Positions 5,480 through 64,000 are shown, numbered from the stretch's first letter. The stretch is DNA of 64,000 bases from Spirochaetia bacterium (GCA_965203905.1 CBDBDQ010000005.1:1568001-1632000); one strand, 5' to 3'. Notes: generated by a model not told the origin, from the letters alone. A program made the numbers and translations.

Positions 5480-6469
5480 ATGGTGGTGCCGGACACCACG
5501 CCCGGGGAGTTCGAACGCCTGCGCCGGGAGCAGCTCCAGCGGCGTTTGGGGGGAGACGGCACGCCAGCGCCGGAGGTGATCTCCAGCAAGGTGCGTGACA
5601 GTGTCGATCTCGGGAACCGGCTGCTCATCGTCACCAGTGACCGGGTATCGGCCTTCGACCGCGTCCTCGCCACCATTCCGTTGAAAGGCCAGGTGCTGAA
5701 CCAGCTCTCGGTGTTCTGGTTCCAGCACACCGCCGACATCGTCGCCAACCACCTGCTGCGCGAGGTGACGCCGCGCAGTATGCTGGTGCGCCGCTGTGAG
5801 GTGCTGCCGGTGGAGGTGGTGGTGCGCGGGTATCTGACCGGGTCGGCGTGGCGCGACTACCAGCGCGACGGCGCAGTGTCGGGCATCCCGCTGCCGCCGG
5901 GCATGCGTGCCGAGGAGCGTTTTCCGCGTCCGTTGTTGACTCCGTCGACCAAGGCCGGCCCCGGGGAGCACGACCGCCCGGTGTCGCGCGCCGAGCTGCT
6001 GGCCGGCGGCACGGTGCCCGCGGAGCTGTGGCGGCGGATCGAGACGGTGGCGCTGCAGCTCTACGCACGGGGCGTGGAGCACGCCGCGCGCCGGGGCCTG
6101 ATCCTGGTCGACACCAAGTACGAGTTCGGCACCATCGGCGGCGAACTGGTGCTGGCGGACGAGGTGCACACGCCCGACAGCAGCCGCTACTGGTATCGCG
6201 ACGGCTACGCGCAACGGTTCGCCCGCGGTGAGCCGCAGCGCAAGCTGGACAAGGAGTTTCTGCGCGCGTGGCTGATGCAGCGCGGCTTCATGGGCGACGG
6301 CGCGGCGCCGGAGATCCCGGACGCGGTACGCCACGAGCTGTCGCAGCGCTACCGGGAGACCTACCGGATCCTTACCGGGCGCGACTTGGCGCCGAGCGCG
6401 CTGACGCTCGAGGAGGAGTTGGAACGTTACGCCGCGGTCGTGCGCGAGGCAGGCCACGGTGGCCGCTAG
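5480..6469 (+). CDS. purC: SAICAR synthase
   Basis: SKVRD, SDRVSAFD, EVVVRGYLTGS, TPSTKA, ILVDTKYEFG, DEVHTPDSSRYW, LDKEFLR (C-terminal part of ORF 3719..6469). Confidence 0.95.
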   Translation: MVVPDTTPGEFERLRREQLQRRLGGDGTPAPEVISSKVRDSVDLGNRLLIVTSDRVSAFDRVLATIPLKGQVLNQLSVFWFQHTADIVANHLLREVTPRSMLVRRCEVLPVEVVVRGYLTGSAWRDYQRDGAVSGIPLPPGMRAEERFPRPLLTPSTKAGPGEHDRPVSRAELLAGGTVPAELWRRIETVALQLYARGVEHAARRGLILVDTKYEFGTIGGELVLADEVHTPDSSRYWYRDGYAQRFARGEPQRKLDKEFLRAWLMQRGFMGDGAAPEIPDAVRHELSQRYRETYRILTGRDLAPSALTLEEELERYAAVVREAGHGGR

Positions 6470-7550
6470 CAGCCCGCTGCCTGCGGGGCGCCGCAGGACC
6501 GCGGCGGCTGGGGTGCCGTTGCTGCTGCTCGGGCTACTGCTGCTGGGTGCCTGTGGCAACTCCGGAGCTACGCTCACGGTGGTCAGCTACAACGTCCAGA
6601 ACCTGTACGACGCCACCGACGACGGCGGCGAATACCGCGAGTTTACCGCCGCCGGCGGCTGGCATGAGGCCCTCTACACCGCCAAGCTGCGCGCCATCGC
6701 GAGCGCGCTGCGCCGCGCCGTCCCGGCGGGGGCGGACCTGGTGGCGCTGCAGGAGGTGGAGCACGCCGGTGCCGCGCGGCGGCTGGTGAACCTGGAGCTG
6801 TCGCGGCAGGGGTACCGGCACGTGGCGTGGCTGCCGGACCCGCGCTCCGCCACCGGCCCGGTGGTGCTCTCCAAGCTGCCCGTGCGCAGGGTCGGGGCCC
6901 TCTGGGTGGAGGGATCGCCGGAGCAGCCGCTGCGGCCCATCCTGGAGGTGGAAGTGGCCCTCGGCGAGGCGGCCGATGCGCGCTCACTGTTCCTGTTCAA
7001 CAACCACTGGAAATCGCGCCACGGCGGAGCCGCCGAGACCGAGCGCTACCGGCGCCGGGCGGCGGCGACGCTGGCGGCGCGCCTGCGGGAGATCCACGCT
7101 GCCGACCCGGAGGCCGACGTGATCGTGGCCGGCGACCTGAACGTCTCGGTGGACGAGTACGAGCGTCGCCGCGGGCGCTACCTGACGGCCCTTATGCCCG
7201 CGGAGGCCGCGGCCGAAGGAGCGCTGGCGGTGACCGCGGCGGTGCCAACTCCGGCAACGCCGCTGGCGCTGTTCAGCCCGTGGTACGATTACCGTAACGC
7301 CGGCCGGGCTCCGGAGGGCAGCTACCGCTATCGGGGCACCTGGGAGACCATCGACCACCTGCTGTTGGGCCCCGGCCTGTTCGACGGCCTTGGCGTGAGC
7401 TATGCCGGCAGCGACCGCTTCACGGTGATCAGTGACGGCCTGCTCGATGCCGAGGGCAGCCCGCGCCGCTTTCTGCGCGGCCCCCCACCGGGCGGCTACT
7501 CCGATCATCTGCCACTGCGCCTGGACCTGGAACTCCATCCAGCAAGATAA
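6459..7550 (+). CDS. Endonuclease/exonuclease/phosphatase (EEP) family lipoprotein
   Basis: Lipobox LLGAC; SYNVQNL, LQEVE, NHWKS, GDLN, IDH, SDHLP. Confidence 0.9.
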   Translation: MAASSPLPAGRRRTAAAGVPLLLLGLLLLGACGNSGATLTVVSYNVQNLYDATDDGGEYREFTAAGGWHEALYTAKLRAIASALRRAVPAGADLVALQEVEHAGAARRLVNLELSRQGYRHVAWLPDPRSATGPVVLSKLPVRRVGALWVEGSPEQPLRPILEVEVALGEAADARSLFLFNNHWKSRHGGAAETERYRRRAAATLAARLREIHAADPEADVIVAGDLNVSVDEYERRRGRYLTALMPAEAAAEGALAVTAAVPTPATPLALFSPWYDYRNAGRAPEGSYRYRGTWETIDHLLLGPGLFDGLGVSYAGSDRFTVISDGLLDAEGSPRRFLRGPPPGGYSDHLPLRLDLELHPAR

Positions 7551-7793
7551 GGCTGAGTGAGAAGCGTGCAATCGCCTTCGCCTATCAGAATTTGACGTGA
7601 CTGGACTGCCCTGATTCGCGCCCTACATGCTGAATCTTTGAATCTTGCACAAACTATTGAACAGCACGGATTTGTGTTCCCAAGCGTTCTATAGCCGCGT
7701 CGGGAATCGGCAACACCCGACCCTGCGCAGCGTGGTCCTGAGGGCGCGGGAGGCGATGTCTGTCACTCATGTCATCTCATGTCACCAGGCAGG

Positions 7794-7824
7794 TTGACAT
7801 GGGCTCCATTCCGATATGTATACT
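7794..7824 (+). promoter_or_regulatory. Candidate sigma70 promoter
   Basis: TTGACA-N19-TATACT upstream of the low-GC PIN module; spacing is suboptimal. Confidence 0.35.
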
Positions 7825-8090
7825 CCTTTATTGCAGCTATGGGCACTGCCACTAAACCGAGGCATGGTGTCGTACAATACCTCCCATTCCACGGAGACGA
7901 CCTAGCGCCAGATTGGCTCTATCCAAATGGCACGAACCGCCGTGGGCGATGGTGAGGATCAGGTTAAGCGGGTAACCAAGAATGGCCAGGTTACGATTTC
8001 AGGTTCAAGGACAACTCGGAAGTATCACCCTGTCTGGGTTTCTGGGTCAAATCCAAGATCACCTGCATATGTTAAAAGAATACGAAGGTC

Positions 8091-8453
8091 TTGCTTCCAG
8101 AGCAAGATGAATCACTCGGCTCTGCGGAGGGTACTCTGGAGACGATATCGATCCATCGCGGCCGGCGATTCGTCATCTATCACAGCAGAACGAAGAAAGC
8201 GATCCACTGCGATATTCCAAGCGAATCTAATCTTCTTGACCAAGCTATGGACGCACTCGGTAATCGGGTGGTAGTGGGTGGCCGACTGCATACGAACGCA
8301 CGCGGTGAACCAGTACGAATTTTGGTCGAAGAGCTGCGAACTTTGAGAGAGCAGTCGAAGTTGCCAAGTATAGCCTCGTTGGGCGGCAGTTACCCCGACA
8401 TCACTGGCGACCTTACGACAGAGGAGTACATCAGGGGTCTTCGTGAGTGCTGA
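8091..8453 (+). pseudogene. C-terminal part of a putative PIN-associated antitoxin-like gene, 5' part degraded
   Basis: GSAEGTLETISIH...RVVVGGRL...PDITGDLTTEEYIRGLR; overlaps the PIN start; upstream frames are interrupted by stops; low GC. Confidence 0.5.
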
Positions 8454-8781
8454 ACGATATGAGAAGCCGTACTTGGACTCATCCGTCTTCATTGCCTGGC
8501 TGAAAGGAGAAATCTCTAAAGGGGTAGATCGTAAACAGGTTGCAGGACAGATTCTACGAAACGCCGAGCTTGGAGGATTCCGCATTTGCATCTCCGCATT
8601 GACGCTTGCGGAGGTTCACAAGAAGCGAGGGCATGCACAAATCACGGACGATGAACACACCGAGATACTAAGATTCTTCGAGCATGACTACTTTGATGTA
8701 GTCTCCGTGGACCGAATGATCGGCGAGGAAGCACACAGGTTCTGTCGTAAGTACGGGTTATCACCCGCGGATGCAATTCAC
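8443..8781 (+). pseudogene. PIN/VapC toxin, truncated after DAIH
   Basis: YLDSSVFIAW, ISALTLAEV, GLSPADAIH, then an abrupt switch to GC-rich unrelated sequence; the final T-x-D motif is missing. Confidence 0.75.
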
Positions 8782-8891
8782 CGGCTCGTAGCCGTTGTCG
8801 AACACGTAGTCGCCGAGCTCGTCGGCGCCGGCGGCAAGGCCGTCCTCGATCATGCGCAGCGCCGGGCCGACCGCGACGACGCTTCCGTAAG

Positions 8892-9066
8892 TCCTGGGCA
8901 ACGATTCCAGTCCTCCACCACGTCGGCGGCGACGGTTGCCGCAGGCCCAGCCTCAGCGGTCGCGGCGTTTCTCGGAGGACTGGAAGGCGATACACAGCAA
9001 CGCGTAGGGATCGCCTCCAACCGCTCGCTGGGAATGAGCGAGCCGCACATCATATATACGCCGTAG
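8892..9066 (-). repeat. Diverged copy of the dksA 3' end plus about 55 bp of its downstream flank
   Basis: Aligns by eye with 13740-13917; carries substitutions and a 1-nt deletion (gggatcgcc vs gggaatcgcc). Confidence 0.9.
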
Positions 9067-9075
9067 CCACAGCGG

Positions 9076-11083
9076 CGGCGTGGACTGGGTCGTTGCAACC
9101 TGCGACGCCTGTCGCGAACTGCGACAGTTCCTGCAAAGTGTTGCAGCCCAATTACTTGAGTCGGGATAGGCAGGCTCAGGCGTTTGCATCTTGGACACTT
9201 CGTCACGATTGTCCGCAACCGCAGGCTCTGCCAGTGGCTGATCCCTACCGATCGAATTCTTTATCAGGATAAGAATTAACAGGCAGACCCAGGCACCTCC
9301 CGGAGCTGGCACGGTTCCTGCTTGTCACTGTGTTGAACGACAACGACAAGGAGGATCCGTGCTTACGATTGTCGGCGGCATAGCGGGTGGATTAGGGCTT
9401 TTTTTCATGGGCATGAAGCTGCTCTCGGAGCATCTCAGGTTGTTGTCCAATCGTCGCCTGCGACAGAGTGCCGCCCGTTGGACCAGGAATCGGTGGACGG
9501 GGTTAGCCTGGGGCGCAATTGCCGGCGCGGTCACGCAGACCATGCCCGCGTTGACGTTCATCATGGTAGGCATGTTGAGGTCGGGACTCCTGTCCGTGCG
9601 CCGGGCGTTCCCCATCCTGCTCGGCGGAAACATCGGGGCGGTGCTGCTGCTGCTGGTCGTGATGCTCGATATCAAAATGGCCGTGCTGTACGTCCTGGGC
9701 GTTTCGCAGATGACAGCCATGATCTCAACGAGAAATAACCGAGCGGCCAGATACCAGACCATGGCCGCAGCGCTGTTCGGGATGGGCATGATGATTCTCG
9801 GGTTTCTCCTGCTCAAGGACTCCGTGTCACCGCTGGCGGACTATCCCTGGTTCAGAGCGATCGTGGCATGGGCCGACCGCTCGCTGTTCCTGTGCCTGTT
9901 GGGCGGCACGTTGCTGTCCGTCGCGATGCAATCGGCGGGCGTGGTGAAGGTTACCAGCATCAGCATGGCCGCGGCTGGACTCCTCGGTATCGAACAGGTC
10001 CTGATGCTCAATCTGGGCGCCTGCCTTGGGTCGAGCGCGGCCCTCTGGCTGTTGACGTTGAACCTGACCGGTTGTTCCCGGCAGGTGGCCATGTACCAGG
10101 TGCTGTTCAACTGCGTGTCGTGCGCCGTATTCGTTCCGCTGCTCATTGTGGAAGCGTACTTCGACGTGCCGCTGTTCAAGGCCGCGATCGTCTCCATCGA
10201 TCTCCCTCTGGCGCAGCGATTGGCGTTGTTCGCCGTCTTCGTTGAGCTGACCACCTGCACGTTCCAGCTCACGGTCCTGGGGCCGGCCGCGCGGCTGATC
10301 GCACGCTGGTGGCCGGCTACGGAAGCGGAGACCCTGTCGAAACCGTGGTACGTTCACGACCAAGCCCTGGAAGACGCCGCCAGCTCGCTGCGGCTGGCCG
10401 ATCGCGAACAGCGGCGTCTGCTGGAGATACTGTCGCGCTGTCTCGACACGGTACGGCAGGGCACCGAGCTGGGCGCGCTGCGCGAGGCGGCAAAGGCGGT
10501 GCTGACCCGCATCGAGGAATTCCTGGACGACCTGGCGGAGCATTACCCGGACCAGAGTATCGATGACCACGTTTCGATGCTCACGCGCCAGCGGTTGCTG
10601 TTCTGGCTCGATGAACGGGTGCTGGAGCTGTGCGAAGTGCTGCATACCATGCCCCGGCGAGCGGAGCTGGAGGATTGGCGCATGGGTCTGGTCGAGGGCA
10701 TCGACGCCGTGCTGCTGGTGCTGCAAGACATGCTGAGTGCCGGCGACGAGGAGTCCTGGCCGCTTACCATGCAATTGATGAACAGCCGCGGCGAGCTGAT
10801 GCGCAGGACGAGAAGCACGTACCTGGGGGACGGATCGTCCCTGAGCGCCGCACAACGAACGAGTGTGCTGCGGCTCACCAGTATCACGGAGCACATCTTC
10901 CTGCTGTTGTCGCGACTGGCGCACGAATATCAACGGTACGCCGCTGAGAATGCCGACGGGCAAACTCCCGACGGCAGAGAGCCGGCGGCCGAGACGATGG
11001 CGTCGCCAAGTGGCCGCGATCTCCGGGAGGACGCCGCACTGAGAGCACTGTCAGCCGGCTCGGCTGCGCGAATGTAACCCTCG
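9076..11083 (+). repeat. Direct repeat copy 1 (partner 11472-13477)
   Basis: 9255-11083 appears identical to 11649-13477 (offset 2394; all overlapping ORF translations on both strands are identical); the first ~180 bp differ by substitutions and indels. Confidence 0.95.
9359..11077 (+). CDS. Na/Pi cotransporter family protein with PhoU-like helical C-terminus, copy 1
   Basis: GGLGLFFMGMKLLSE, ILLGGNIG, MQSAG, NLGACLG; hydrophobic N-half and helical C-half; AAGGAGG SD. Confidence 0.85.
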   Translation: MLTIVGGIAGGLGLFFMGMKLLSEHLRLLSNRRLRQSAARWTRNRWTGLAWGAIAGAVTQTMPALTFIMVGMLRSGLLSVRRAFPILLGGNIGAVLLLLVVMLDIKMAVLYVLGVSQMTAMISTRNNRAARYQTMAAALFGMGMMILGFLLLKDSVSPLADYPWFRAIVAWADRSLFLCLLGGTLLSVAMQSAGVVKVTSISMAAAGLLGIEQVLMLNLGACLGSSAALWLLTLNLTGCSRQVAMYQVLFNCVSCAVFVPLLIVEAYFDVPLFKAAIVSIDLPLAQRLALFAVFVELTTCTFQLTVLGPAARLIARWWPATEAETLSKPWYVHDQALEDAASSLRLADREQRRLLEILSRCLDTVRQGTELGALREAAKAVLTRIEEFLDDLAEHYPDQSIDDHVSMLTRQRLLFWLDERVLELCEVLHTMPRRAELEDWRMGLVEGIDAVLLVLQDMLSAGDEESWPLTMQLMNSRGELMRRTRSTYLGDGSSLSAAQRTSVLRLTSITEHIFLLLSRLAHEYQRYAAENADGQTPDGREPAAETMASPSGRDLREDAALRALSAGSAARM

Positions 11084-11127
11084 CCCCCCGCCGTCACGCG
11101 CCGGCCGACGAGCCGCGCCCCCGGGCT

Positions 11128-11436
11128 CGTCACCGCCGGTCGTGCCGTCGTCGTCGGCGCCGCTGGCTCTGTTCAGCCCGTGGTACGACTACCGTGACGC
11201 CGGCCGGGCTCCGGAGGGGAGCTACCGCTATCGGGGCACCTGGGAGACCATCGACCACCTGCTGTTGGGCCCCGGGCTGTTCGACGCCGCCGGCGTGAGC
11301 TATGCCGGCAGCGACCGCTTCACGGTGATCAGTGACGGCCTGCTCGATGCCGAGGGCAGCCCGCGCCGCTTTCTGCGCGGCCCCCCGCCGGGCGGCTACT
11401 CCGACCATCTGCCGCTACGCCTGGACCTGGAACTCC
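11128..11436 (+). pseudogene. Orphan 3' fragment of the EEP nuclease gene (diverged allele)
   Basis: 11161-11436 aligns with 7261-7536 (offset 3900) with mostly synonymous differences; no 5' part. Confidence 0.93.
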
Positions 11437-11752
11437 GCGATCCGCCGCGCAAAGATGGCCACCCGCTCCGCCGGCGTGGACTGGGTCGTTGCAACCTGCG
11501 ACGCCTGTCGCGAACTGCGACAGTCTCTGCAAAGCGTTGCAGCTCAATTACTTGGGTCGGGATAAGCAGGCTCGATGGTTGCATCTTGGACACTTCGTCA
11601 CGATTGCCCGCAACCGCAGCTTCTGCCGTGACTGATCCCCTCCAATTCAATTCTTTATCAGGATAAGAATTAACAGGCAGACCCAGGCACCTCCCGGAGC
11701 TGGCACGGTTCCTGCTTGTCACTGTGTTGAACGACAACGACAAGGAGGATCC

Positions 11753-13471
11753 GTGCTTACGATTGTCGGCGGCATAGCGGGTGGATTAGGGCTTTTTTTC
11801 ATGGGCATGAAGCTGCTCTCGGAGCATCTCAGGTTGTTGTCCAATCGTCGCCTGCGACAGAGTGCCGCCCGTTGGACCAGGAATCGGTGGACGGGGTTAG
11901 CCTGGGGCGCAATTGCCGGCGCGGTCACGCAGACCATGCCCGCGTTGACGTTCATCATGGTAGGCATGTTGAGGTCGGGACTCCTGTCCGTGCGCCGGGC
12001 GTTCCCCATCCTGCTCGGCGGAAACATCGGGGCGGTGCTGCTGCTGCTGGTCGTGATGCTCGATATCAAAATGGCCGTGCTGTACGTCCTGGGCGTTTCG
12101 CAGATGACAGCCATGATCTCAACGAGAAATAACCGAGCGGCCAGATACCAGACCATGGCCGCAGCGCTGTTCGGGATGGGCATGATGATTCTCGGGTTTC
12201 TCCTGCTCAAGGACTCCGTGTCACCGCTGGCGGACTATCCCTGGTTCAGAGCGATCGTGGCATGGGCCGACCGCTCGCTGTTCCTGTGCCTGTTGGGCGG
12301 CACGTTGCTGTCCGTCGCGATGCAATCGGCGGGCGTGGTGAAGGTTACCAGCATCAGCATGGCCGCGGCTGGACTCCTCGGTATCGAACAGGTCCTGATG
12401 CTCAATCTGGGCGCCTGCCTTGGGTCGAGCGCGGCCCTCTGGCTGTTGACGTTGAACCTGACCGGTTGTTCCCGGCAGGTGGCCATGTACCAGGTGCTGT
12501 TCAACTGCGTGTCGTGCGCCGTATTCGTTCCGCTGCTCATTGTGGAAGCGTACTTCGACGTGCCGCTGTTCAAGGCCGCGATCGTCTCCATCGATCTCCC
12601 TCTGGCGCAGCGATTGGCGTTGTTCGCCGTCTTCGTTGAGCTGACCACCTGCACGTTCCAGCTCACGGTCCTGGGGCCGGCCGCGCGGCTGATCGCACGC
12701 TGGTGGCCGGCTACGGAAGCGGAGACCCTGTCGAAACCGTGGTACGTTCACGACCAAGCCCTGGAAGACGCCGCCAGCTCGCTGCGGCTGGCCGATCGCG
12801 AACAGCGGCGTCTGCTGGAGATACTGTCGCGCTGTCTCGACACGGTACGGCAGGGCACCGAGCTGGGCGCGCTGCGCGAGGCGGCAAAGGCGGTGCTGAC
12901 CCGCATCGAGGAATTCCTGGACGACCTGGCGGAGCATTACCCGGACCAGAGTATCGATGACCACGTTTCGATGCTCACGCGCCAGCGGTTGCTGTTCTGG
13001 CTCGATGAACGGGTGCTGGAGCTGTGCGAAGTGCTGCATACCATGCCCCGGCGAGCGGAGCTGGAGGATTGGCGCATGGGTCTGGTCGAGGGCATCGACG
13101 CCGTGCTGCTGGTGCTGCAAGACATGCTGAGTGCCGGCGACGAGGAGTCCTGGCCGCTTACCATGCAATTGATGAACAGCCGCGGCGAGCTGATGCGCAG
13201 GACGAGAAGCACGTACCTGGGGGACGGATCGTCCCTGAGCGCCGCACAACGAACGAGTGTGCTGCGGCTCACCAGTATCACGGAGCACATCTTCCTGCTG
13301 TTGTCGCGACTGGCGCACGAATATCAACGGTACGCCGCTGAGAATGCCGACGGGCAAACTCCCGACGGCAGAGAGCCGGCGGCCGAGACGATGGCGTCGC
13401 CAAGTGGCCGCGATCTCCGGGAGGACGCCGCACTGAGAGCACTGTCAGCCGGCTCGGCTGCGCGAATGTAA
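11753..13471 (+). CDS. Na/Pi cotransporter family protein, copy 2
   Basis: 572-aa translation identical to copy 1. Confidence 0.85.
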   Translation: MLTIVGGIAGGLGLFFMGMKLLSEHLRLLSNRRLRQSAARWTRNRWTGLAWGAIAGAVTQTMPALTFIMVGMLRSGLLSVRRAFPILLGGNIGAVLLLLVVMLDIKMAVLYVLGVSQMTAMISTRNNRAARYQTMAAALFGMGMMILGFLLLKDSVSPLADYPWFRAIVAWADRSLFLCLLGGTLLSVAMQSAGVVKVTSISMAAAGLLGIEQVLMLNLGACLGSSAALWLLTLNLTGCSRQVAMYQVLFNCVSCAVFVPLLIVEAYFDVPLFKAAIVSIDLPLAQRLALFAVFVELTTCTFQLTVLGPAARLIARWWPATEAETLSKPWYVHDQALEDAASSLRLADREQRRLLEILSRCLDTVRQGTELGALREAAKAVLTRIEEFLDDLAEHYPDQSIDDHVSMLTRQRLLFWLDERVLELCEVLHTMPRRAELEDWRMGLVEGIDAVLLVLQDMLSAGDEESWPLTMQLMNSRGELMRRTRSTYLGDGSSLSAAQRTSVLRLTSITEHIFLLLSRLAHEYQRYAAENADGQTPDGREPAAETMASPSGRDLREDAALRALSAGSAARM

Positions 13472-13483
13472 CCCTCGTCCTCC

Positions 13484-13795
13484 GCCGACGGGTCCGACGT
13501 GATTCTCATGCGCCTCGCGGACGCCGTCGATGCGCTCGGTGGTCTGGGGATGCAGATTCACCGCTCCTACTGGGCTGCGTACACCCACATGAACCGCCTG
13601 GTGCGGCGTGAGGGACGGGTCCTACTGCACCTTTCCGGTGATCGCGAGATTCCGGTGAGCCGCCCCTACCTCAAGGCCGTACGCGCGGCCCTGCCGGACA
13701 GATCCGCGCCTCTGCCGAGCCGGGAGCAACGGCCATCCATCCTGGGCAACGGTTCCAGTCCTCTGCCACGTCGGCGGCGCCGGTCGCCGCAGGGC
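13484..13795 (+). pseudogene. Orphan 3' fragment of a LytTR gene plus its downstream flank
   Basis: DGSDVILMRLADAVDALGGLGMQIHRSYW...PVSRPYLKAVR matches the reverse complement of 26745-27052; the TAA stop of the full gene is CAA here. Confidence 0.92.
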
Positions 13796-13802
13796 CTCAA
13801 GC

Positions 13803-14159
13803 TCAGCGGTTGCGGCGTTCCTCGGACGACTGGCAGGCGATACACAGCAGCGCGTAGGGAATCGCCTCCAGCCGCTCTCTGGGAATGCGCGAGCCGCACA
13901 TCATGCATACCCCGTAGTGACCGTTGGGGATACGTGCCAGCGCCGACTCGATCAGGTTCAGCCGGCGCATCTCGCGTGCGCCGAGCGTCTCCAGGGTCTT
14001 GCGGTCGATGTCCTCGGCCGCGATGTCCACCAGATCCTTGGGATCCATATCTTCCCACAGCTCACGGAACTCCGCGTCCTCCTGCGCCAGATGCGCGAGG
14101 ATCTCCTCTTTCAGGGCGTTCAACCGCTGCTGCATCAACTCGGTGAACTGGTTACTCAC
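13803..14159 (-). CDS. dksA: TraR/DksA family transcription factor
   Basis: DLVDIA acidic tip, YGVCMMCG...ERLEAIPYALLCIACQ C4 zinc finger; GTG start preceded by GGGAG. Confidence 0.88.
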   Translation of the reverse strand: MSNQFTELMQQRLNALKEEILAHLAQEDAEFRELWEDMDPKDLVDIAAEDIDRKTLETLGAREMRRLNLIESALARIPNGHYGVCMMCGSRIPRERLEAIPYALLCIACQSSEERRNR

Positions 14160-14357
14160 GGTATCGGACTCCCAGATGGCCAATCAGCCGCACGGACCCG
14201 GAGAGCGGCGCCCGCACGGATGCGCCTGTATGGGTGAATTGCTACGCCTTGTCAAGATCTTCGCTGCGGTCCCAGACCGGTGCCGGACCTTCGGTTGACA
14301 AAACCAGCCGTGGCGCATGTACTACCACGGTACTATCCCCTGTTGAAAGGATTGTTC

Positions 14358-14576
14358 TTGGCAAAGGAAGAGGCGATCGAGATCGAAGGAACGGTCCGGG
14401 AATCGCTACCCAACACCATGTTTCGCGTCGAGCTGCAGAATGGCCACCGGGTGTTGGCGCACCTGTCCGGGAAGATGCGGCGCCACTACATTCGCATCGT
14501 TCCCGGAGATCGTGTTCGCGTGGCCCTGTCACCGTACGATCTGAACCGCGGCCGCATCATCTATCGCGAACGTTAG
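14358..14576 (+). CDS. infA: Translation initiation factor IF-1
   Basis: [29 protein letters not shown]...SGKMR...[14 protein letters not shown]; TTG start with AAAGGA. Confidence 0.97.
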
Positions 14577-14580
14577 GGGT

Positions 14581-14615
14581 CTGTCGGATTGGCGCGGCAG
14601 CGGCTGATCCGACAG
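14581..14615. terminator. Hairpin between convergent infA and batD
   Basis: CTGTCGGAT...ATCCGACAG perfect 9-bp stem; no U-tract. Confidence 0.5.
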
Positions 14616-14647
14616 GACTCCGTACGGTAGGCGACGGTTTCGGGGCG

Positions 14648-53227: not shown

Positions 53228-53421
53228 CGCTGTACGACATTCTCAATGAGCAGCAGCCAGTGACGGCCGAGATGGCAGTTCGATTTGGCAAGCTATTCGG
53301 TAACGGCGCGGAATTCTGGGCGAACCTGCAACGCAAGCTATGACCTGACAGTCGCGGAACGCGCGGTGGACGTCTCCGGGATTCCAACTCTGGCGGTACG
53401 CGGATAGCTGGCCACATCCAC
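53228..53421 (+). pseudogene. Orphan 3' fragment of higA plus 14 bp of downstream flank
   Basis: Aligns with 54447-54639 with a few substitutions and a 1-nt insertion (cgcAagctat). Confidence 0.95.
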
Positions 53422-53943
53422 CTCTACGGCACGGGCGACGCGGCCGCACTGTCGCTGCGTTCCCGGCGCGCCGAGCTGCGCCGCCGCGGCCGCGCCGGGA
53501 CCCTGCCGCTGATCGAGTTCAGCGAACAGGTGGAGCTGGTGCGGGAAGAGGAACGCTGGTCCGTGTATCTCGACTGTGCCGTCGGCTACACCATCCGCTT
53601 CCGCGCCGAAGTGCGCGAGCAGCGTCCCTTCGAGTTCGGCGTGGAGCCGGAGAGCATCATCCTCAAGCCCGGCGAGACCGGTTCCGCCGTGTTCCGCGCG
53701 CGCAACGTCTCCGCCGCCACCGTCAAGGCCAAGGCGGGACACCTGTTCGACCCGCCGGTGGCGTTCCTGCACACCGAGCTGGTGCAGTGCTTCTGCTTCT
53801 TCGAGGATACCTACGCCCCCGGTGAGGAGCGGCAACTCCCGGTTGCGATTCGCCTCGGCTGGTAGGTGCCCGCCGACATCGGCGAGATCACCATGCTATA
53901 CGAGTACTACCCCGTGGACCAGTTCCAGGACCGGCGCTCTTAG
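53422..53943 (+). pseudogene. Orphan 3' fragment of the CtaG-domain gene (diverged allele)
   Basis: Aligns with about 50754-51270; internal TAG at 53863-53865 (GAG in the intact gene); different tail (RRS* vs RRPAPAHDR*). Confidence 0.95.
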
Positions 53944-53995
53944 TCTTCGCTTCATGGCAGCCCGGAGGCTCGAGCACGTCAACCCATGGACGGAT

Positions 53996-54039
53996 GTAAG
54001 GTGATGCTTGACAATCTCGGCTTAGTCTCCTCACCTTAC
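53996..54039 (+). promoter_or_regulatory. higBA promoter with inverted repeat (candidate HigA operator), probably leaderless
   Basis: GTAAGGTGA...TCACCTTAC perfect 9-bp IR around TTGACA (54008-54013); ATG 5 nt later with no SD. Confidence 0.6.
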
Positions 54040-54044
54040 CGTCG

Positions 54045-54323
54045 ATGATCGAAAGCATTCGGCACAAGGCGCTTCGGAACTACTGGACTACGGGCCAGAC
54101 GAAGGGTCTGAGTGCCGAGTGGATCCCGAAGCTGAGGCGGATCATGTCGGCGCTTGAAGCCGCCGACAAGCCGGAGCAGATGAACTATCCGGGGTCGTAT
54201 TTCCATCCCCTGAAGGGCGACCGAGCGGGCCGCTACGCGGTACGTCTTACGGCGAACGTGCGAGTTACGTTCGCATGGGATGACCACGGAGCGGCGGATG
54301 TGGACCTGGAGGACTATCATTGA
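54045..54323 (+). CDS. higB: HigB/RelE-family toxin
   Basis: MIESIRHKAL...FHPLKGDRAGRYAVRLTANVRVTF...DVDLEDYH. Confidence 0.92.
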   Translation: MIESIRHKALRNYWTTGQTKGLSAEWIPKLRRIMSALEAADKPEQMNYPGSYFHPLKGDRAGRYAVRLTANVRVTFAWDDHGAADVDLEDYH

Positions 54324-54625
54324 TGATCGAGAGGCACTCTTCCATAGACCCGGTACATCCCGGGGAGATCCTGCGTCAGGACATCCTGCCGGCGCTTGCG
54401 ATGAGCAAGACGGCCGTTGCGGCCGCACTCGGGGTGTCGCGGCAGACGCTGTACGACATTCTCAATGAGCAGCAGCCAGTGACGGCCGAGATGGCAGTTC
54501 GATTCGGCAAGCTATTCGGTAACGGCGCGGAATTCTGGGCGAACCTGCAACGCAGCTATGACCTGGCAGTCGCGGAACGCACGGTGGACGTCTCCGGGAT
54601 ACCAACTCTGGCGGTACGCGGATAG
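54323..54625 (+). CDS. higA: HigA family antitoxin
   Basis: HPGEILR, LGVSRQTL, VTAEMA.R..K.FG...EFW.NLQ..YDL; TGATG overlap with higB. Confidence 0.93.
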   Translation: MIERHSSIDPVHPGEILRQDILPALAMSKTAVAAALGVSRQTLYDILNEQQPVTAEMAVRFGKLFGNGAEFWANLQRSYDLAVAERTVDVSGIPTLAVRG

Positions 54626-54659
54626 CTGGCCACATCCACGTTCTCGATGCTGGACCGGG

Positions 54660-55523
54660 TCAGGCGCGCTGAGTGCGGTAGATCGTCTCCGGGGTGTTCT
54701 CGATCCGTGACCACCACAGGGCGAGGTCGAAGTCGGGATCGCCGGTGAGGTAGCGCCACAGGCGGATGCGGTTCATCACCTCGACACGGTGCCGCTGACC
54801 GTGCCAGGGGATCGTCTCGCTGAGGATCTTCGCGACCTCGAAGCGGGTCTCGGGATCGTCCAGGTCGCCGGTGTTCCACAGCCGCTGCTGGCGCACGGTG
54901 GGGTTTAGGCGCAGCTTGAACATGTAGCGGTCGCGGTCACTGTGGTTGCTGCGCGCCGCGTGCCACACGTTGGTGTGCCAGAAGAACATGGTGCCCGCCT
55001 CGCACACCGCCTGCACCTGGCCCAGCACGTCCTGGTAGCGGCGGGTGGTGGATTCGTACACGCGCCGGAACTGGCTGCCCGGCAGAAACAGCGTGCCGCC
55101 CGACTCGGCCGGCGTATCCTCCGGAAAAAAGGAGATCTGGATGTCGAAGTGCAGGCGGCGCACGTCGTACTCCGCGTCCTGGTGCAGATTGGCGCCCTTG
55201 CGGGTGTGCGCTGGCGTGAGGTGCGCGGCGTGGTGGTCGTAGCGCGGATCGGGTCCCACCAGGCTGTGGATGATCGCCGCCACCCGCGGCAGCCGGAACA
55301 CCCGCCCCAGCGCCGACTCCGGCTCGCTCCACACTTCGCGGAACGGCGCCGCGCCCTGCGCCCGGGCATGGCGGTGGCTGCCGGAGGCGATTTCCTGCGC
55401 CGCCTCCGCGCACAGGTCGCGCGGCACCAGGTCGTCGCAACGCAGCAGGCCGTCGCGCACGAAGCGGGCCATCTCGCGGCTGGTCAGCCGCAGGTCGGGA
55501 GCGGTGCCGTTGTGCTCAGCCAC
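54660..55523 (-). CDS. Phytanoyl-CoA dioxygenase (PhyH) family Fe(II)/2OG enzyme
   Basis: FVRDG, LHQD (HxD), GGTLFLPGSQ, NVWH, RYMFK. Confidence 0.85.
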   Translation of the reverse strand: MAEHNGTAPDLRLTSREMARFVRDGLLRCDDLVPRDLCAEAAQEIASGSHRHARAQGAAPFREVWSEPESALGRVFRLPRVAAIIHSLVGPDPRYDHHAAHLTPAHTRKGANLHQDAEYDVRRLHFDIQISFFPEDTPAESGGTLFLPGSQFRRVYESTTRRYQDVLGQVQAVCEAGTMFFWHTNVWHAARSNHSDRDRYMFKLRLNPTVRQQRLWNTGDLDDPETRFEVAKILSETIPWHGQRHRVEVMNRIRLWRYLTGDPDFDLALWWSRIENTPETIYRTQRA

Positions 55524-59254: not shown

Positions 59255-59313
59255 GCTGAGACGATCCGCTGCTGCTCGGGCACGAGACGGTGGACGTGGT
59301 CGAGAGTCGTTCG

Positions 59314-59527
59314 ACTGTCTGCGGTGACCGTCGGCGAATACAAGCCGGAATCGAGATCACCCGGGAGTACGACAGTGCCAAGGCTGCAGAGATCGAAGCG
59401 TGGCTCAGCCAGATCTTGGGGTCACGTAGCGTAGTGCCGATGGATGCGACAGCGCGGATTATCAGGCGACCGGCATCACCGATGCGGTCCCGGACGCGCG
59501 GAGCTCGCTACACAACCAGTGCCGGCA
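59314..59527 (+). pseudogene. Fused remnants: central PIN/VapC segment plus 78 bp of the DUF433-like gene
   Basis: LSAVTVGE(frameshift)IQAGIEITRE..AKAAEIEAWL...PMD; 59450-59527 aligns without gaps to 63598-63675. Confidence 0.8.
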
Positions 59528-59633: not shown

Positions 59634-60125
59634 TCAGTTGGAGTCGTGGAACAGGCGCCGGTCCCACCAGACGGGAGTCTCCAGACCGACCGTCAGGGCG
59701 GCGAACTCCCCGTGCCGAGTGTTGATGACGATGTTGCGCTCCATGCGTGCGACGACCGATGGGACGATCAGGATTGCGCAGCGATTCTCCGCATACCAGG
59801 CGCGCCCGAAGCGGCGGGCTGCTTCCCCACTCGCGTGGGCCCAGTTCGGGACCATATCCGCCGTTACCACTTCATAGCTGGTGCCCATTGGTATCGTGAT
59901 CTCGATGAAGTGCTGGTTCGGCGGCGGGACGCCGTTCCAGTGCGCGAGCATTTCCAGCATGGCGGTCGAGTAGGTTGCGGAGGCGTAGATTACTTCAGCG
60001 CCGGCCTCATGCCATCTGCCGGTGACGCGGCGCGCGCCTTCCGCGTTCCAGACCGGGAACTGACCCGCCGGATCGCCGATTCGATACGCGCGCATCGTCT
60101 CCGGAAGCGTTTGCGGCGTCGTCAA
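59634..60125 (-). CDS. RES domain toxin (MbcT/ParT-like)
   Basis: AYRI, GA..V.GRWH, IYAS...TAMLE, VPSVV..ERNIVIN..H, WDRRLF. Confidence 0.9.
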   Translation of the reverse strand: MTTPQTLPETMRAYRIGDPAGQFPVWNAEGARRVTGRWHEAGAEVIYASATYSTAMLEMLAHWNGVPPPNQHFIEITIPMGTSYEVVTADMVPNWAHASGEAARRFGRAWYAENRCAILIVPSVVARMERNIVINTRHGEFAALTVGLETPVWWDRRLFHDSN

Positions 60126-60613
60126 AGAGCTGTGCCGGCCTCCGCCCGGCGGATGAGATTGAGGACCGCTTCGGTGCCCGCCGAGCTGGAGCGCGCCATG
60201 TCGAACGGCGTCTCGCCGTCCAGCAGCGGATGTGGGCGGTTCAGGAACGCTTCGATCGCGTCCCGGTCACCGTGGTAGGCGCGGCTGACCGCATCGACGA
60301 CGCGTCCCACCTCGTAGAGCCGCTCGCTGAGCTGCCTCGACAGCGCCTTCCCGGCTTTGCGCACCCGCCTGAGCGTGGCCTCCGGGACCACCGGCCCGAC
60401 TACCCGGCTCCGGCCGAGCACCTCGGCCAAGGCGATGGCTGACGCCGGGAGCAATCCGCCGGAGACGATCCGCGCAAGCTGCACATCGCTCAGAATATCC
60501 GCTTCGTCTATCGCCAGAAGCATCGCGACCCGCGAAGCCTCGCTCGCCGGCACCTCGGTCGGGTCGGCATATACCTGCAGAGGTGCCGGCCGCCTGAATG
60601 ATGGAGGCGTCAT
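60122..60613 (-). CDS. Xre/MbcA/ParS antitoxin
   Basis: VPEATLRR...LS...SERL, FLNRPHPLLDGETPFDM...G.EAV; 4-bp overlap with RES. Confidence 0.9.
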   Translation of the reverse strand: MTPPSFRRPAPLQVYADPTEVPASEASRVAMLLAIDEADILSDVQLARIVSGGLLPASAIALAEVLGRSRVVGPVVPEATLRRVRKAGKALSRQLSERLYEVGRVVDAVSRAYHGDRDAIEAFLNRPHPLLDGETPFDMARSSSAGTEAVLNLIRRAEAGTAL

Positions 60614-60804
60614 ATGACGATTGTACGGCGATCATTCGACGGTTCGCAATAGGGTAGCAGAACACGCGCGCGAACGGTTCGTCGCAGCAGGCCAGGCACC
60701 TCGGCGAAAGCGATAGTGTTATATTCGATGCTTCAAGGTGTCGCAGCCGCAGATCGGCTTCGCTGACGGCAGGGTTGACTTGGCTGCGTTTCCTGCGGTC
60801 GCTT

Positions 60805-61694
60805 GTGATTCTCGAGGTTCGACACATCGTAAAACGCTTTGCCGCTCATCTTGCGGTGGACGATGTCTCCTTTCTGGCTCAACCCGGTGAGATCTTCGGG
60901 TTGCTCGGACCGAACGGCGCCGGCAAGACCACCATCATCCGCATGATCATGAACCTCCTGACCCCGGACTCGGGCGAGGTGCTGTTCGACGGCAGGCCGG
61001 TGGAGGAGCGGGACAAGAACCGCATCGGCTACCTCCCCGAAGAGCGCGGCCTGTACCGGCGTCAGACGGTCGCCGAGGTATTGACCTACCTGGCGGCACT
61101 CAAGGGCGTGCCGAGGTCGCAATCGGCGGCGACGATCCGATCGTGGCTGACTCGATTCGACTTGGCTGACTGGCACGACCAAGGGGTCGACCGGCTCTCC
61201 AGGGGAATGGCTCAGAAGGTGCAGTTCATCGCGGCGGTGGTCCACGACCCGAGATCATTTTCTTCGACGAGCCGTTCGCCGGCATCGATCCGGTCGCCAT
61301 CGACGTCCTGCGTGCCGCGCTGGTGGAGCTGGCCCGGACGGGTAAGACGGTCCTGTTCTCCAGCCACATGATGGAGCAGGCCGAGCGCACCTGCGAACGG
61401 GTGCACATCATCGACCAGGCTAGAACCGTCCTCGACGGTCGCTTGAGCGAGACAAAGGATCACTTCGGTACGCGTACCAGTCATGTAGAGGTAGAAGGGG
61501 ATGCCTCATTCCTGCGCGATGATCCTGCGGTAGCTCAGCTGACCGGGTATCCGAACTACCTGGAGATCGAGCCTGCCGACGGGGTCGCTCCTGATCGGAT
61601 CCTCAAGCGGCTGATCGAACGGCTGCGCGTGCGCCGGTTCGAGGCGGTATCCCCTTCACTGCACCGCATCTTCAGGGAGCACGTGAGACGGTGA
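60805..61694 (+). CDS. ABC-2 type transporter ATP-binding protein, frameshift at about 61251
   Basis: GPNGAGKTT, GYLPEERGLY, LSRGMAQK; IFFDEPF and FSSH follow in another frame after one missing base (gacccgagatc). Confidence 0.88.
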
Positions 61695-62908
61695 GCAAGC
61701 TGTGGCTGGTTGCCCGCAAGGAGCTGCACACCATGGTCCGGACCACCGGCTACCGGATCGCGACCGTGGCCGGGCCGTTCCTCTTCGTTGCGTTGCTCTT
61801 CGTTCCGGTAGCGTTGGGGCGCCTGATCGACGCGGCTTCCGGGGGTCAGACAGTGGCGCTGGTGGCGGCAGGACCGCTGCTGCCGGCGATCCGCGCTGAA
61901 CTTGCGCCCCACGGAATCTCCGTGGAGGGGGCGGCGGAGGAGTCTGTACTGGCGCAACGCGTGCGCGCCGGCGACCTGGATGGATACGTGGTGTTTCCAC
62001 CGGACGCACTTGCCGCGGAACAGCTCCGGTACGTCATCGGCGAGACCGTCTACATCGCCCGGACTACGCTGATAGCCGACGTGGTCGGCCGCGCAGTGGT
62101 GCAGCGAAGGCTGGAGTTGGAGGGGATGGACCCCGTTCGCGTGACCACCCTGACGCGGCTCCCGCGGCTGCGGAAGTTGGTGCTGGACGAGGAGGGCGAG
62201 TCAGAGCGGGACCTTGTGGCAGCTTTCGTGATGCTGACGGCCTTCATCGCCATGCTCTACTCCATGTGGACCATATACGGCCACGCGCTCGGCGTGTCGG
62301 TGCTGACCGAGAAGACCGGCAAGACCGCCGAGATCATGCTGTCGTCGCTGCCACCCTTCGCTCTGCTCGCCGGCAAGTTGTTGGGCAAGGTGCTCGCGGG
62401 CGTGTTGCAGTGCCTGGCGTGGCTGGTGATCAGCTTGCCGGTGGTCGCAACGCTCGGGCCGCATCTGGATCTGTCGGTGGTGCCGTTCCTGCAACCCGGC
62501 AACCTGCTGGCGCTGATGGGATTCTTCGGGCTGGGGTTCCTGTTGTACGCGGCCCCGTACGCGATCGCGGGAGCAGTCGCCGCCGACGAGGACAATTTCT
62601 CTATTCTCCTGTGGCCCGTGTCCGTCATTCAGATGGGGCAGTTCGTGCTGGCGCCGGCACTGCTCACCGGCCCCGACGGTCCGCTTGCGGTGGTCCTGTC
62701 GCTGATCCCGTTTACCGCCCCGACATTCATGCTCTTGCGGGTGGTTGTGGGCAATCCTGGAGCCGTCGAGGTGGCGGTGGCGGTAACCGGCACGCTGTTG
62801 CTCACGGTGGCCGGAGTCTGGGCCGCGGCCAAGGTGTTTCGACTGGGCATCCTGCTCACCGGCAAGAAGGGGACCTTCGCCGAGATCGTCCGTCTGCTGC
62901 GAGCATAG
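61691..62908 (+). CDS. ABC-2 type permease (NatB/YhaP-like)
   Basis: ARKE, EKTGKTAEIMLSS, GKLLG, LSLIPFTAP; TM pattern. Confidence 0.88.
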   Translation: MSKLWLVARKELHTMVRTTGYRIATVAGPFLFVALLFVPVALGRLIDAASGGQTVALVAAGPLLPAIRAELAPHGISVEGAAEESVLAQRVRAGDLDGYVVFPPDALAAEQLRYVIGETVYIARTTLIADVVGRAVVQRRLELEGMDPVRVTTLTRLPRLRKLVLDEEGESERDLVAAFVMLTAFIAMLYSMWTIYGHALGVSVLTEKTGKTAEIMLSSLPPFALLAGKLLGKVLAGVLQCLAWLVISLPVVATLGPHLDLSVVPFLQPGNLLALMGFFGLGFLLYAAPYAIAGAVAADEDNFSILLWPVSVIQMGQFVLAPALLTGPDGPLAVVLSLIPFTAPTFMLLRVVVGNPGAVEVAVAVTGTLLLTVAGVWAAAKVFRLGILLTGKKGTFAEIVRLLRA

Positions 62909-62947: not shown

Positions 62948-63154
62948 AGGAGGCGGAGGAGGCGGAGGAGGCGGAGGAGGCGGAGGAGGCGGAGGAGGCG
63001 GAGGAGGCGGAGGAGGCGGAGGAGGCGGAGGAGGCGGAGGAGGCGGAGGAGGCGGAGGAGGCGGAGGAGGCGGAGGAGGCGGAGGAGGCGGAGGAGGCGG
63101 AGGAGGCGGAGGAGGCGGAGGAGGCGGAGGAGGCGGAGGAGGCGGAGGAGGCGG
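62948..63154. repeat. Perfect tandem repeat (AGGAGGCGG)x23
   Basis: 207 bp = 23 x 9 bp, no variant unit seen; intergenic. Confidence 0.97.
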
Positions 63155-63232
63155 TACACTGCCTTGACCGCTCCCCGAGCCCTTACGGACACTGGTCAGA
63201 CAAATGGTCATCTACGGCCCGGCGGAGGATGT

Positions 63233-63327
63233 ATGGGTCGAGCATGGCAGGTGCAGGAGGCCAAGGCGCGTTTCAGCGAGTTCGTCGGGGACTAGCCTCA
63301 CCGAAGGTCCGCAGGTCGTAGCCCGAG
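63233..63327 (+). pseudogene. Phd/YefM antitoxin remnant
   Basis: MGRAWQVQEAKARFSEFV(frameshift)SLTEGPQVV, then truncated; GGAGG SD. Confidence 0.8.
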
Positions 63328-63465
63328 ATGTATCTCCTGGACACGAACGTCGTATCAGAGTTGCGCCGACCACGTCCGAACCAGGCGGTCGTTCGTTGGG
63401 TCGGTGAGCAGCCCGCCGACCGACTGTTCCTGTCAGCGGGGCTGACCGTCGTTACCCGCAACGCG
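63328..63465 (+). pseudogene. PIN/VapC remnant with internal deletion
   Basis: MYLLDTNVVSELRR...LFLSA joined directly to GLTVVTRN. Confidence 0.8.
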
Positions 63466-63536
63466 CACGCGACTTCCGGCAAGCGTAAGGGTGTTTTCCC
63501 TGGACAGATGCACCGTGTTGACTCAGAATCTCCACG

Positions 63537-64000
63537 ATGGATGACATCCACGGCGGCATGCGCCCCGCTGAGGTCCCGGCATACACGACAACCGAGGCAG
63601 CGCGGATCATCAGACGACCGGCATCAACGGTACGGTCCTGGACGCGTGGGGCTCGCTACACGACTGGCGCTGGCAAGCAGTTCTGGCCACCGGTCGTGCC
63701 GGCGGAGCCGCCATACCTGTCGTTTCAGAATCTGGTGGAGCTGTACGTGCTCTCGTCGCTTCGCAGACTGCATTCCGTGCCGCTCAAGAACGTCCGGAGC
63801 GCGATCTCCTATCTGCGGGAGACCGAGCGAACTGACCATCCTCTCGCGGACTGTGATCTCCTCACTGACCGCTCGGACCTGTTTGTCGAGAGGACGGGCG
63901 AGTACCTCAATATCAGCCGAGCCGGCCAGCTCGAAATGAAGGCGCAACTGCTTCAGTGCATGAGGCAGGTCGACAGAACGGTAGGTGGACTCCCCTACAG
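63537..64000 (+). CDS. DUF433/VapB45-like antitoxin, N-terminal part (runs off the window)
   Basis: Own translation: MDDIHGGMRPAEVPAYTTTEAARIIRRPASTVRSW...LSFQNLVEL.VL..LR...VPL..VR.AI.YL...HPLA...LTD. Confidence 0.75.
   Translation, partial: MDDIHGGMRPAEVPAYTTTEAARIIRRPASTVRSWTRGARYTTGAGKQFWPPVVPAEPPYLSFQNLVELYVLSSLRRLHSVPLKNVRSAISYLRETERTDHPLADCDLLTDRSDLFVERTGEYLNISRAGQLEMKAQLLQCMRQVDRTVGGLPY

Follow-up and report, generated by a model that had tools for sequence, protein, structure and literature searches.

A 64,000-nucleotide stretch of a Spirochaetia bacterium genome (the window; C5:1568001-1632000 of the metagenome-assembled genome (MAG) G000) holds three loci at which accessory genes, here called cargo, are bracketed by same-orientation, diverged partial gene copies, as detected by blastn self-alignment. 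At the clearest of them, locus 2, an intact CtaG/Cox11-like gene (A) is followed by cargo, an orphan piece of higA (B'), an orphan piece of the ctaG-like gene (A') and an intact higBA toxin-antitoxin pair (B), the hotspot being two different fillings joined head to tail. The reading favoured here, at a probability of roughly 0.55, is that such loci arose by additive recombination of two alleles, combining one homologous exchange with one illegitimate join. A first interpretation of this DNA (the original prediction) had proposed the order A-cargo-B'-A'-B, which locus 2 matches exactly, and duplicates of about 80-520 bp; those aligned here measure 78-516 bp at 83-97% identity and are all direct, with E values from 6e-16 to <1e-120.

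Two fillings of one hotspot at the ctaG-like gene

Locus 2 lies between the ctaG-like gene and a PhyH-family dioxygenase (Table 1). The 3' part of the ctaG-like gene recurs beyond the first cargo stretch (x), and this second copy begins exactly where the orphan higA piece stops. The joint, 53421|53422, is abrupt, with 4 nt (CCAC) common to both parental contexts. The interiors of the two units, 51270-53220 (1,951 bp) and 53938-54438 (501 bp), share no similarity detectable by blastn, and homology along the whole copies, as an in-situ duplication would leave it, is thus not found at this locus. For the Pyr_redox and other interleaved loci described below, dissimilarity of the x and y parts is given by construction of the pair test.

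The original prediction had suggested a comparison with sister genomes. The relatives compared are same-genus genomes, ten of which were searched for this hotspot. The ctaG-like and PhyH genes stand on one contig in six of the ten; in four of these six (G001, G007, G009 and G010) they are 35-92 bp apart, that is, the site is empty, and in G004 and G006 an unrelated insert of ~1.27 kb lies between them. Locus 2 is thus a conserved hotspot with an empty state. In G007, higBA and the nuclease of the cargo adjoin each other elsewhere in the genome, and relatives of both at higher divergence co-occur on two (L038 and L039) of five fetched metagenome contigs, indicating that the cargo genes travel. 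A donor haplotype composed of ctaG, nuclease and higA' was absent from the five loci found in metagenome contigs, where only nuclease relatives of 64-73% stand, in different surroundings.

Co-occurring strains and the integrity of the assembly

A strain-chimeric assembly, in which a ctaG-x-higA' strain and a ctaG-higBA strain had been written one after the other, could produce a similar arrangement, and G000 is a MAG with 7.9% contamination and co-binned strain haplotigs, several strains being present in the same runs. Evidence on this point was taken from the Logan contigs of two runs, X18 and X20, and the findings hold among the contigs listed there. In X18, an exact contig (51110-53257, 2,148 bp, depth 9.41) leads from the end of A via the cargo into higA'; exact contigs over the left flank and over cargo y, at 50295-50990 and 53778-54157, have depths of 10.1 and 10. 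When all contigs of >=90% likeness are summed, three of the four bins along the left flank (49934-50801) have a depth of 12-15, and the other bin, 50368-50584, reaches 20.3. Two 10x strains with a common flank would give ~20 throughout, and the depths found in X18 therefore favour one real structure. None of the contigs listed bridges 53421|53422, and depth falls to 3.6 over 53189-53405, as expected because the k-mers of higA' and higA form a bubble; the stretch 53258-53405, bare of contigs in X18, is counted neither for nor against the structure.

Strains with other versions of the locus are indicated by X20, in which a contig of depth 19.2 runs from ctaG straight to 54648 and skips the whole island (its far side being 24 letters); it carries 27 differences in 641 bp of ctaG and thus represents a ~4% divergent strain with an empty site. 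Another contig joins 50737 to 53470 (depth 10.8 in X20 and 2 in X18, one side being 20 letters), and weakly suggests an A2-like allele (A2 being the orphan copy) continuous with the 5' part of ctaG. The contigs C1 and C2 of the MAG (18.9 kb each) are alternative haplotypes of C5:5658651-5669383 and 2872290-2892309, being 92-99.9% identical to C5 with several swapped cassettes; they are thus strain variants binned into the MAG that add to its contamination score.

Overlap and de Bruijn assemblers generally need a long shared stretch to join sequences, and if a bubble were walked twice, its identical source and sink would appear in duplicate. Considering that (i) the joint of locus 2 has only its 4 nt in common and no duplicated flank, so that the source and sink duplication expected of a bubble walk is absent, (ii) the assembler put out other variants as separate contigs, (iii) x, y and the left flank stand equally at ~10 in X18, and (iv) the same abrupt joints occur at ~14 loci, a chimera is quite improbable despite the low depth and the lack of a bridging contig.

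Direct repeats with the same order across the genome

The self-scan covered C5 only, in 40-kb windows at 20-kb steps, and counted repeats up to ~40 kb apart. It returned 1,462 direct versus 302 inverted non-overlapping high-scoring segment pairs (HSPs) and, at 85-99% identity and >=100 bp, 256 direct versus 14 inverted. The order A-x-B1|A2-y-B2 with an abutting joint is displayed by 35 HSP pairs, which collapse to ~14 distinct loci outside two multi-repeat regions that were left out (1.20-1.35 Mb and 6.62-6.71 Mb). The pattern stands out from the background of gap lengths, with 16 pairs at -20 to 30 bp versus 8, 4 and 3 in the three 51-bp bins that follow, and the joints of the other genome-wide loci are likewise abrupt, with 0-8 nt of microhomology; both features accord with what the original prediction had led one to expect. 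Another locus, C5:810395-813435, mirrors locus 2 in that a Pyr_redox gene is followed by its own x, a RelE/HTH fragment abutting Pyr_redox fragments, and an intact RelE-HTH pair. The signature also occurs at loci with paralogous sulfatases, with an ABC operon in duplicate, with PF09820/PF08011 genes and with insertion sequences, IS21 and DDE transposases lying inside two of the genome-wide loci.

The 120 repeat clusters obtained also include a multi-copy ~2-kb element, PF09820 genes, paralogue arrays and the multi-repeat regions. A repeat of 1.5-2.1 kb, at 82-94% identity, is found at C3:28093-29559 and at more than 45 places on C5, such as C5:4041807-4043926 (L047); in the copy examined, the C-terminus of a 531-aa open reading frame (ORF) weakly matches an HNH endonuclease (E 2e-4). 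The PF09820 family (AAA-ATPase_like) has 45 matches in the genome, ~34 of them full-length (e.g., C5:7033385, 5592149 and 3424797), with a PDDEXK_9 nuclease domain in both copies scanned. As a driver of the repeats, PF09820/PF08011 genes were rejected: direct repeats flank 7 of 34 full-length copies versus 193 of 3,000 random intervals (6.4%) and, with three of these seven in one repeat region, the genes are taken as cargo and not as cause.

Recombinases, att sites, and genes for end joining and uptake

In agreement with the original prediction, neither an integrase nor a transposase was found in the window, where PF00589 (0 of 28 genome matches), PF00239 (0 of 4), PF00665 (0 of 12) and PF01609 (0 of 12) have no match, the statement for other families applying to the ORFs scanned with Pfam. 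The PF00589 match nearest to the window is at 1915527. A serine-recombinase (Resolvase) match in two adjacent pieces, C5:1551357-1551801, lies 16 kb before the window and is probably a broken gene. The transposase (as PF00665 or PF01609) and terminal inverted repeats of a composite transposon or insertion sequence are absent from the window, the inverted repeats that blastn detects there being only the LytTR and endonuclease/exonuclease/phosphatase (EEP) tail pairs at the borders of an inversion at locus 1. Inspection by eye revealed no shared, attC-like motif at the 22 genome-wide junctions inspected or at those of loci 1 and 2, as had also been foreseen.

Elements that integrate at gene 3' ends classically leave behind an intact gene with a diverged same-orientation orphan 3' end. 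Site-specific integration in trans, with the repeats as att-like duplications of the e14/icd type, would account for such orphans, and both the tyrosine-recombinase matches elsewhere in the genome and the split serine recombinase count in its favour. It is nonetheless very improbable, given that Pfam assignment of the island ORFs and the scans for the four families revealed no recombinase gene within or next to the three islands, that ctaG' abuts the right-neighbour piece higA', whose duplication att duplication does not produce, that repeat lengths and joints vary from locus to locus, and that the sole tRNA of the window (41169-41242) is away from the three loci. On the other hand, the end-joining and competence genes that the original prediction had named are present in the genome: Ku with an adjacent ATP-dependent ligase (outside the window for Ku), ComEC and DprA, together with three further ATP-dependent-ligase matches (one weak). 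End joining and DNA uptake are thus plausible in this organism.

Layered rearrangement at locus 1 and a split cargo gene at locus 3

Locus 1 follows the order EEP, PIN cargo, dksA', Na/Pi transporter, EEP', Na/Pi transporter, LytTR' (fragment D) and dksA. Here the original prediction can account for the outer layer (EEP, cargo and EEP', a 3,900-bp unit) and not for the locus as a whole. The PIN-domain ORF (8443-9066) reads on into the dksA' fragment, and the PIN module has an 88% match elsewhere in G001 (4646464-4647161); neither this cargo nor the transporter was found at locus 1 in the genus relatives searched. The transporter repeats C1 and C2 form a 2,021-bp repeat of 98.9% identity, whose coding sequences (CDS, 1,719 bp) are 100% identical; the 21 mismatches are confined to the 286 bp upstream, a distribution that points to a conversion tract or to a very recent unit; a terminator-like hairpin (11094-11157) follows C1.

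The dksA-RmuC block is inverted relative to both flanks in all four relatives aligned (G003 on two contigs, G010, G007 and G001), which makes the ~12.7-kb inversion specific to the lineage of G000. At its right border, the EEP-tail copy at 26.5 kb is closer to the EEP tail of G003 than the present EEP tail is.

At locus 3, a duplicate of the 5' piece of the DUF433 gene (59450-59527 versus 63598-63675, 83% over 78 bp, E 6e-16) brackets the cargo, as claimed, and the orphan is a piece of a cargo gene of toxin-antitoxin type, not of a core gene. In G001, G004 and G006, the sequence of window positions 63160-63451 is contiguous with that of 59309-59452, and the G001 counterpart consists of intact Phd/YefM antitoxin and PIN toxin ORFs. 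The PIN gene of G000 is instead in two non-colinear pieces (59309-59448 and 63328-63451) with ~30 bp of overlap, the 5' piece ending at 63451, 85 bp before the intact HTH_66-DUF433 gene. Locus 3 therefore does not stand as a clean instance of capture. A paralogue of the cargo gene behind its orphan is present at C5:697381 (83%).

Within the locus 3 cargo, the RES-Xre pair has an 86% match next to the hotspot in G001, and the exporter ATPase is split over overlapping frames, with ABC_tran at 60775-61371 and the DrrA C-terminal domain at 61323-61694, being probably a frameshifted gene. A perfect 23-copy tandem repeat of the 9-bp unit GGAGGAGGC occupies 62948-63154, within overlapping ORFs on both strands that have no Pfam family.

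Divergence of the copies and weighing of the mechanism

The orphans had been described as carrying stops or frameshifts, which is the case for three of four, with a TAG stop and two 1-bp indels in ctaG', a 1-bp insertion in higA', and in dksA' a 1-bp deletion and the loss of two zinc-finger Cys codons; EEP' (279 bp) has neither stop nor frameshift. That differences between copies are mostly synonymous holds only weakly, as 39 of 67 in-ORF mismatches are synonymous and 28 are not (20/11/36 over the three codon positions). When changes between the locus 2 copies A and A2 were polarised with seven outgroups (n = 41), A and A2 each proved to have 13 derived changes, the other 15 being ambiguous; the derived changes fall on codon positions 4/2/7 in the intact copy and 5/2/6 in the orphan. 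In an independent run, X2, four of 12 listed differences from A carry the A2 state, all at sites where the outgroups disagree with A, and these may simply be derived changes in A.

For the additive recombination favoured here, haplotype 1 would have comprised the core-gene 3' part, cargo x and a piece of the right neighbour, and haplotype 2 the same core-gene 3' part, cargo y and the intact neighbour. The incoming DNA, a fragment that would stem from the corresponding locus of a related strain, would have been added to the resident chromosome by a homologous exchange within the shared core-gene segment, so that the core gene would stay intact, and by an illegitimate exchange at 0-8 nt of microhomology that would make the B'|A' joint, no site-specific recombinase being involved. 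Two routes may be envisaged. Circularisation of the fragment by end joining followed by a single RecA-type crossover (Campbell-type insertion-duplication) is a tentative possibility, in line with the intact state of ctaG, EEP and Pyr_redox, each with a downstream same-strand orphan. A linear fragment anchored by homology on one side and illegitimately joined upstream of the anchor, similar to homology-facilitated illegitimate recombination (HFIR), seems a little less likely still, and agrees with the illegitimate joints at a few nt. Both routes would give the same product, and in sequence they are indistinguishable.

Several observations weigh against the additive reading. Besides the missing bridge and the low depth at the locus 2 joint, and the weakness of both strain-variant joints with their short sides, (i) the excess of synonymous differences is weak, (ii) A and A2 are mutually closest, at 92%, and at most 83% identical to the seven outgroups, (iii) the symmetric changes fit neither two functional alleles nor a functional copy plus a pseudogene, (iv) locus 1 needs at least three further events, namely an inversion, a tandem unit and a conversion tract, and (v) non-cargo loci among those with the genome-wide signature point to a general duplicative process not tied to defence cargo. 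The foreign origin of one copy also belongs here, since we infer it, like the order of events and the enzymes, from the arrangement.

Part of this evidence suits an in-situ tandem duplication at microhomology, followed by divergence, interior swaps with alleles of other strains and orphan decay. The abutting head-to-tail joints with their 0-8 nt of microhomology are those of spontaneous tandem duplication, and simple abutting tandem repeats number 13 in the genome, of which three span 0.85-2.2 kb at 88-93% identity, alongside plain paralogue or operon duplications (sulfatases; a 4.1-kb ABC-operon repeat, 93%). The mutual closeness of A and A2 and the non-synonymous changes of the orphan, as expected for some neutral decay, fit it too, and the transporter unit with its identical CDS resembles a recent local duplication or gene conversion. 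Such a course is nevertheless rather unlikely. It would need a second event at each of ~12 loci, a precise replacement of the interior between recognisable flanks; ctaG' would have been a pseudogene from birth, yet its derived changes do not outnumber those of the intact copy; and a ~4% divergent strain with an empty site co-occurs. Identical tandem copies are, moreover, unstable and normally lost by RecA before they reach 5-17% divergence.

Additive recombination may in addition have been filtered by selection, stacking being the outcome selected where an addictive toxin-antitoxin module, such as HigBA (locus 2) or RelE-HTH (C5:813 kb), belongs to the resident haplotype, a proposal that we consider doubtful. 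A double-crossover replacement would remove the antitoxin and kill the recombinant, so that only insertion-duplications that keep the module would survive. If true, islands would ratchet upward in the strain-rich population of an end-joining-proficient symbiont, leaving an excess of diverged short-range direct repeats and helping to explain the 8.0-Mb genome.

Genome context and further features of the window

G000 is a 7.99-Mb MAG in five contigs, of which C5 measures 7.785 Mb (completeness 98.7, contamination 7.9), and at 8.0 Mb it is the largest among the same-genus genomes searched (the others being 3.0-7.0 Mb, the smallest incomplete). The closest public relatives of its CtaG-like protein are Spirochaetia bacterium MAGs. 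Of the words sampled from locus 2, shares of 0.93, 0.65 and 0.57 were found in three runs of one study, with small shares in runs labelled sponge, coral or marine metagenome, and G000 appears to be a long-read MAG from a host-associated community. The GC content of the window is ~70%, with dips to 57-65% in accessory stretches, and the window spans several small flexible islands at conserved core-gene junctions. Gene names rest on Pfam, and the duplicates of the window on blastn self-alignment plus gapped alignments.

In the inverted block of locus 1, an AAA_21 ATPase with a small partner (23950-25607) matches the PADLOC candidates HEC-01A/B and PDC-M25A, and G010 and G001 have the HEC-01-like pair in syntenic position as well, with 70-73% identity. 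Farther on, the ORF 28952-30658 has a C-terminal DbpA RNA-binding domain, with an imperfect repeat of 15-bp period (29262-29361, five copies, 75-80% identity) near its end.

Table 1. Features of the three loci, in window coordinates.
Locus	Feature	Position	Strand	Remarks
1	Intact EEP gene	6459-7550	+	PF19580/PF03372; orthologue in G003, G010, G007, G001
1	Repeat A, EEP 3' part	7258-7536	+	copy 11158-11436, 95.3% over 279 bp, E 5e-125
1	Low-GC cargo x1, ORFs without family plus PIN ORF	7537-8891	+	PF01850; GC 0.57 in 8-10 kb bin
1	Orphan B1, 54 bp of LytTR-gene tail plus dksA 3' part	8892-9066		87.6% over 178 bp to 13740-13917
1	Repeat C1, Na/Pi-cotransporter gene plus upstream	9073-11093	+	CDS 9359-11077; PF02690
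1	Orphan A2, EEP 3' fragment	11158-11436	+	frame still open
1	Repeat C2, second Na/Pi-cotransporter	11469-13487	+	CDS 11753-13471
1	Fragment D, inverted 91% copy of LytTR 3' end (27053-26745)	13486-13795	+	left inversion border
1	Intact dksA/traR-type zinc-finger gene	13803-14183	-	PF01258; repeat B2 = 13740-13917
1	~12.7-kb inverted block (dksA, BatD-like, ArgJ, HEC-01-like pair, RmuC)	13796-26544		
1	Inverted EEP-tail copy (of 7503-7540, 89%)	26545-26582	-	right inversion border
1	LytTR-domain regulator	26810-28018	-	PF04397; 3' end (from 26745) partner of fragment D
2	Intact CtaG/Cox11-like gene	50229-51293	+	PF04442; orthologues in relatives
2	Repeat A, ctaG-like 3' part	50754-51269	+	copy 53422-53937, 92.1% over 516 bp
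2	Cargo, NucS_C-like nuclease	51495-52565	+	PF01939; PADLOC PDC-S11, E 9e-45 (candidate defence family)
2	Cargo, ORF without family	52653-53180	-	no Pfam or PADLOC match
2	Orphan higA' (3' part)	53221-53421	+	96.5% over 202 bp to 54439-54639; stops right at the joint
2	Orphan ctaG'	53422-53937	+	begins right at the joint
2	Intact higB	54045-54323	+	PF05015 and PF01381 for the higBA toxin-antitoxin pair
2	Intact higA	54320-54625	+	as for higB
2	PhyH-family dioxygenase	54660-55523	-	PF05721; conserved right flank of the hotspot
3	Orphan composite	59309-59527	+	PIN middle piece 59309-59448 plus DUF433-gene 5' fragment 59450-59527
3	Cargo, RES toxin	59634-60125	-	PF08808
3	Cargo, Xre-type antitoxin	60122-60613	-	PF09722
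3	Cargo, ABC exporter	60775-62908	+	PF00005, PF13732, PF12698; ABC-2 permease 61691-62908
3	Phd/YefM-antitoxin 3' part plus PIN 5' piece	63162-63451	+	
3	HTH_66 plus DUF433 gene	63537-64000	+	extends past the window to the equivalent of 64226

Comparison with known systems

Bacterial chromosomes contain many integrase-free hotspots of gene gain, whose mode of entry is mostly inferred. In the present genome the joints are preserved, two versions of a locus standing head to tail; sister genomes show the site empty, and co-occurring strains have other versions of it. If confirmed, the ~12 loci would be natural footprints of end joining and single crossover acting on same-locus DNA of neighbours and, if this is true, ordinary recombination alone would stack defence and toxin-antitoxin cassettes and leave core genes intact. 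A practical consequence is that stacked haplotypes of this kind raise the contamination scores of long-read MAGs and give rise to orphan pseudogenes in them.

HFIR was reportedly described by de Vries & Wackernagel 2002, Prudhomme et al. 2002 and Meier & Wackernagel 2003. As in the present loci, one homologous anchor and a microhomology joint bring in DNA without a homologue in the recipient. On the contrary, recipient DNA is here kept and duplicated, and the joint would fall upstream of the anchor. The portions of Amarir-Bouhram et al. (2011, PMC3240628) used here present an Escherichia coli conjugation assay built for HFIR in which a duplication of 109-950 bp, formed by single crossover of a circular molecule, was present in 56 of 60 clones, true HFIR being expected to delete recipient DNA, an outcome that slightly favours the circular route for the loci described above. 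Both cases share a direct duplication of part of the homologous segment around the insert, of similar size to the 78-516 bp found here, without a site-specific recombinase. They differ in that the laboratory cross, as those portions give it, used a plasmid circle with a cloned fragment, whereas here a circle of end-joined chromosomal fragments would be involved, and in that the present copies are diverged by 3-17%.

Transformation-induced merodiploidy in Streptococcus pneumoniae, according to the excerpts of Johnston et al. (2013, PMC3784515) drawn on, likewise leads from incoming DNA through unequal crossover to a tandem duplication with donor and recipient copies. Those duplications extend over 100-900 kb between pre-existing IS861 copies, whereas the units described here are 0.5-15 kb long and their joints lack prior homology.

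With integrons, the loci share the stacking of accessory cassettes at a fixed place with retention of older ones. They differ in that no IntI-type integrase stands beside the array or anywhere in the window and that pieces of neighbouring genes form the boundaries of the cassettes. The integrase-free, integron-like outcome that had been proposed is not a new idea, being already in print for type VI secretion system (T6SS) and Rhs arrays. The cited parts of Kirchberger et al. (2017, PMC5361080) explain T6SS effector-immunity modules and orphan arrays of Rhs and contact-dependent inhibition (CDI) systems by sequential displacement, and their authors draw the parallel to integrons, noting that no integrase is known.

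In those arrays, as far as these parts describe them, a new module enters via a conserved upstream anchor and an illegitimate joint, the old gene that is still needed is kept downstream, and orphan 3' fragments pile up; among described natural patterns, this one is nearest to the loci reported here. Their anchors are polymorphic toxins; no polymorphic toxin, or T6SS effector with immunity genes, serves as anchor here, where ordinary genes (CtaG_Cox11, Exo_endo_phos and Pyr_redox_2) take that role and the modules kept are toxin-antitoxin pairs. A neighbour fragment abutting the orphan (B'|A') is likewise absent from the model in those parts, and many instances occur here in one genome, unlike in the T6SS/Rhs case presented there. 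This route of gene gain is real but largely precedented, both in the laboratory and by comparative work; in the present genome it is displayed at ordinary genes as anchors, with the neighbour's fragment retained at the joint.

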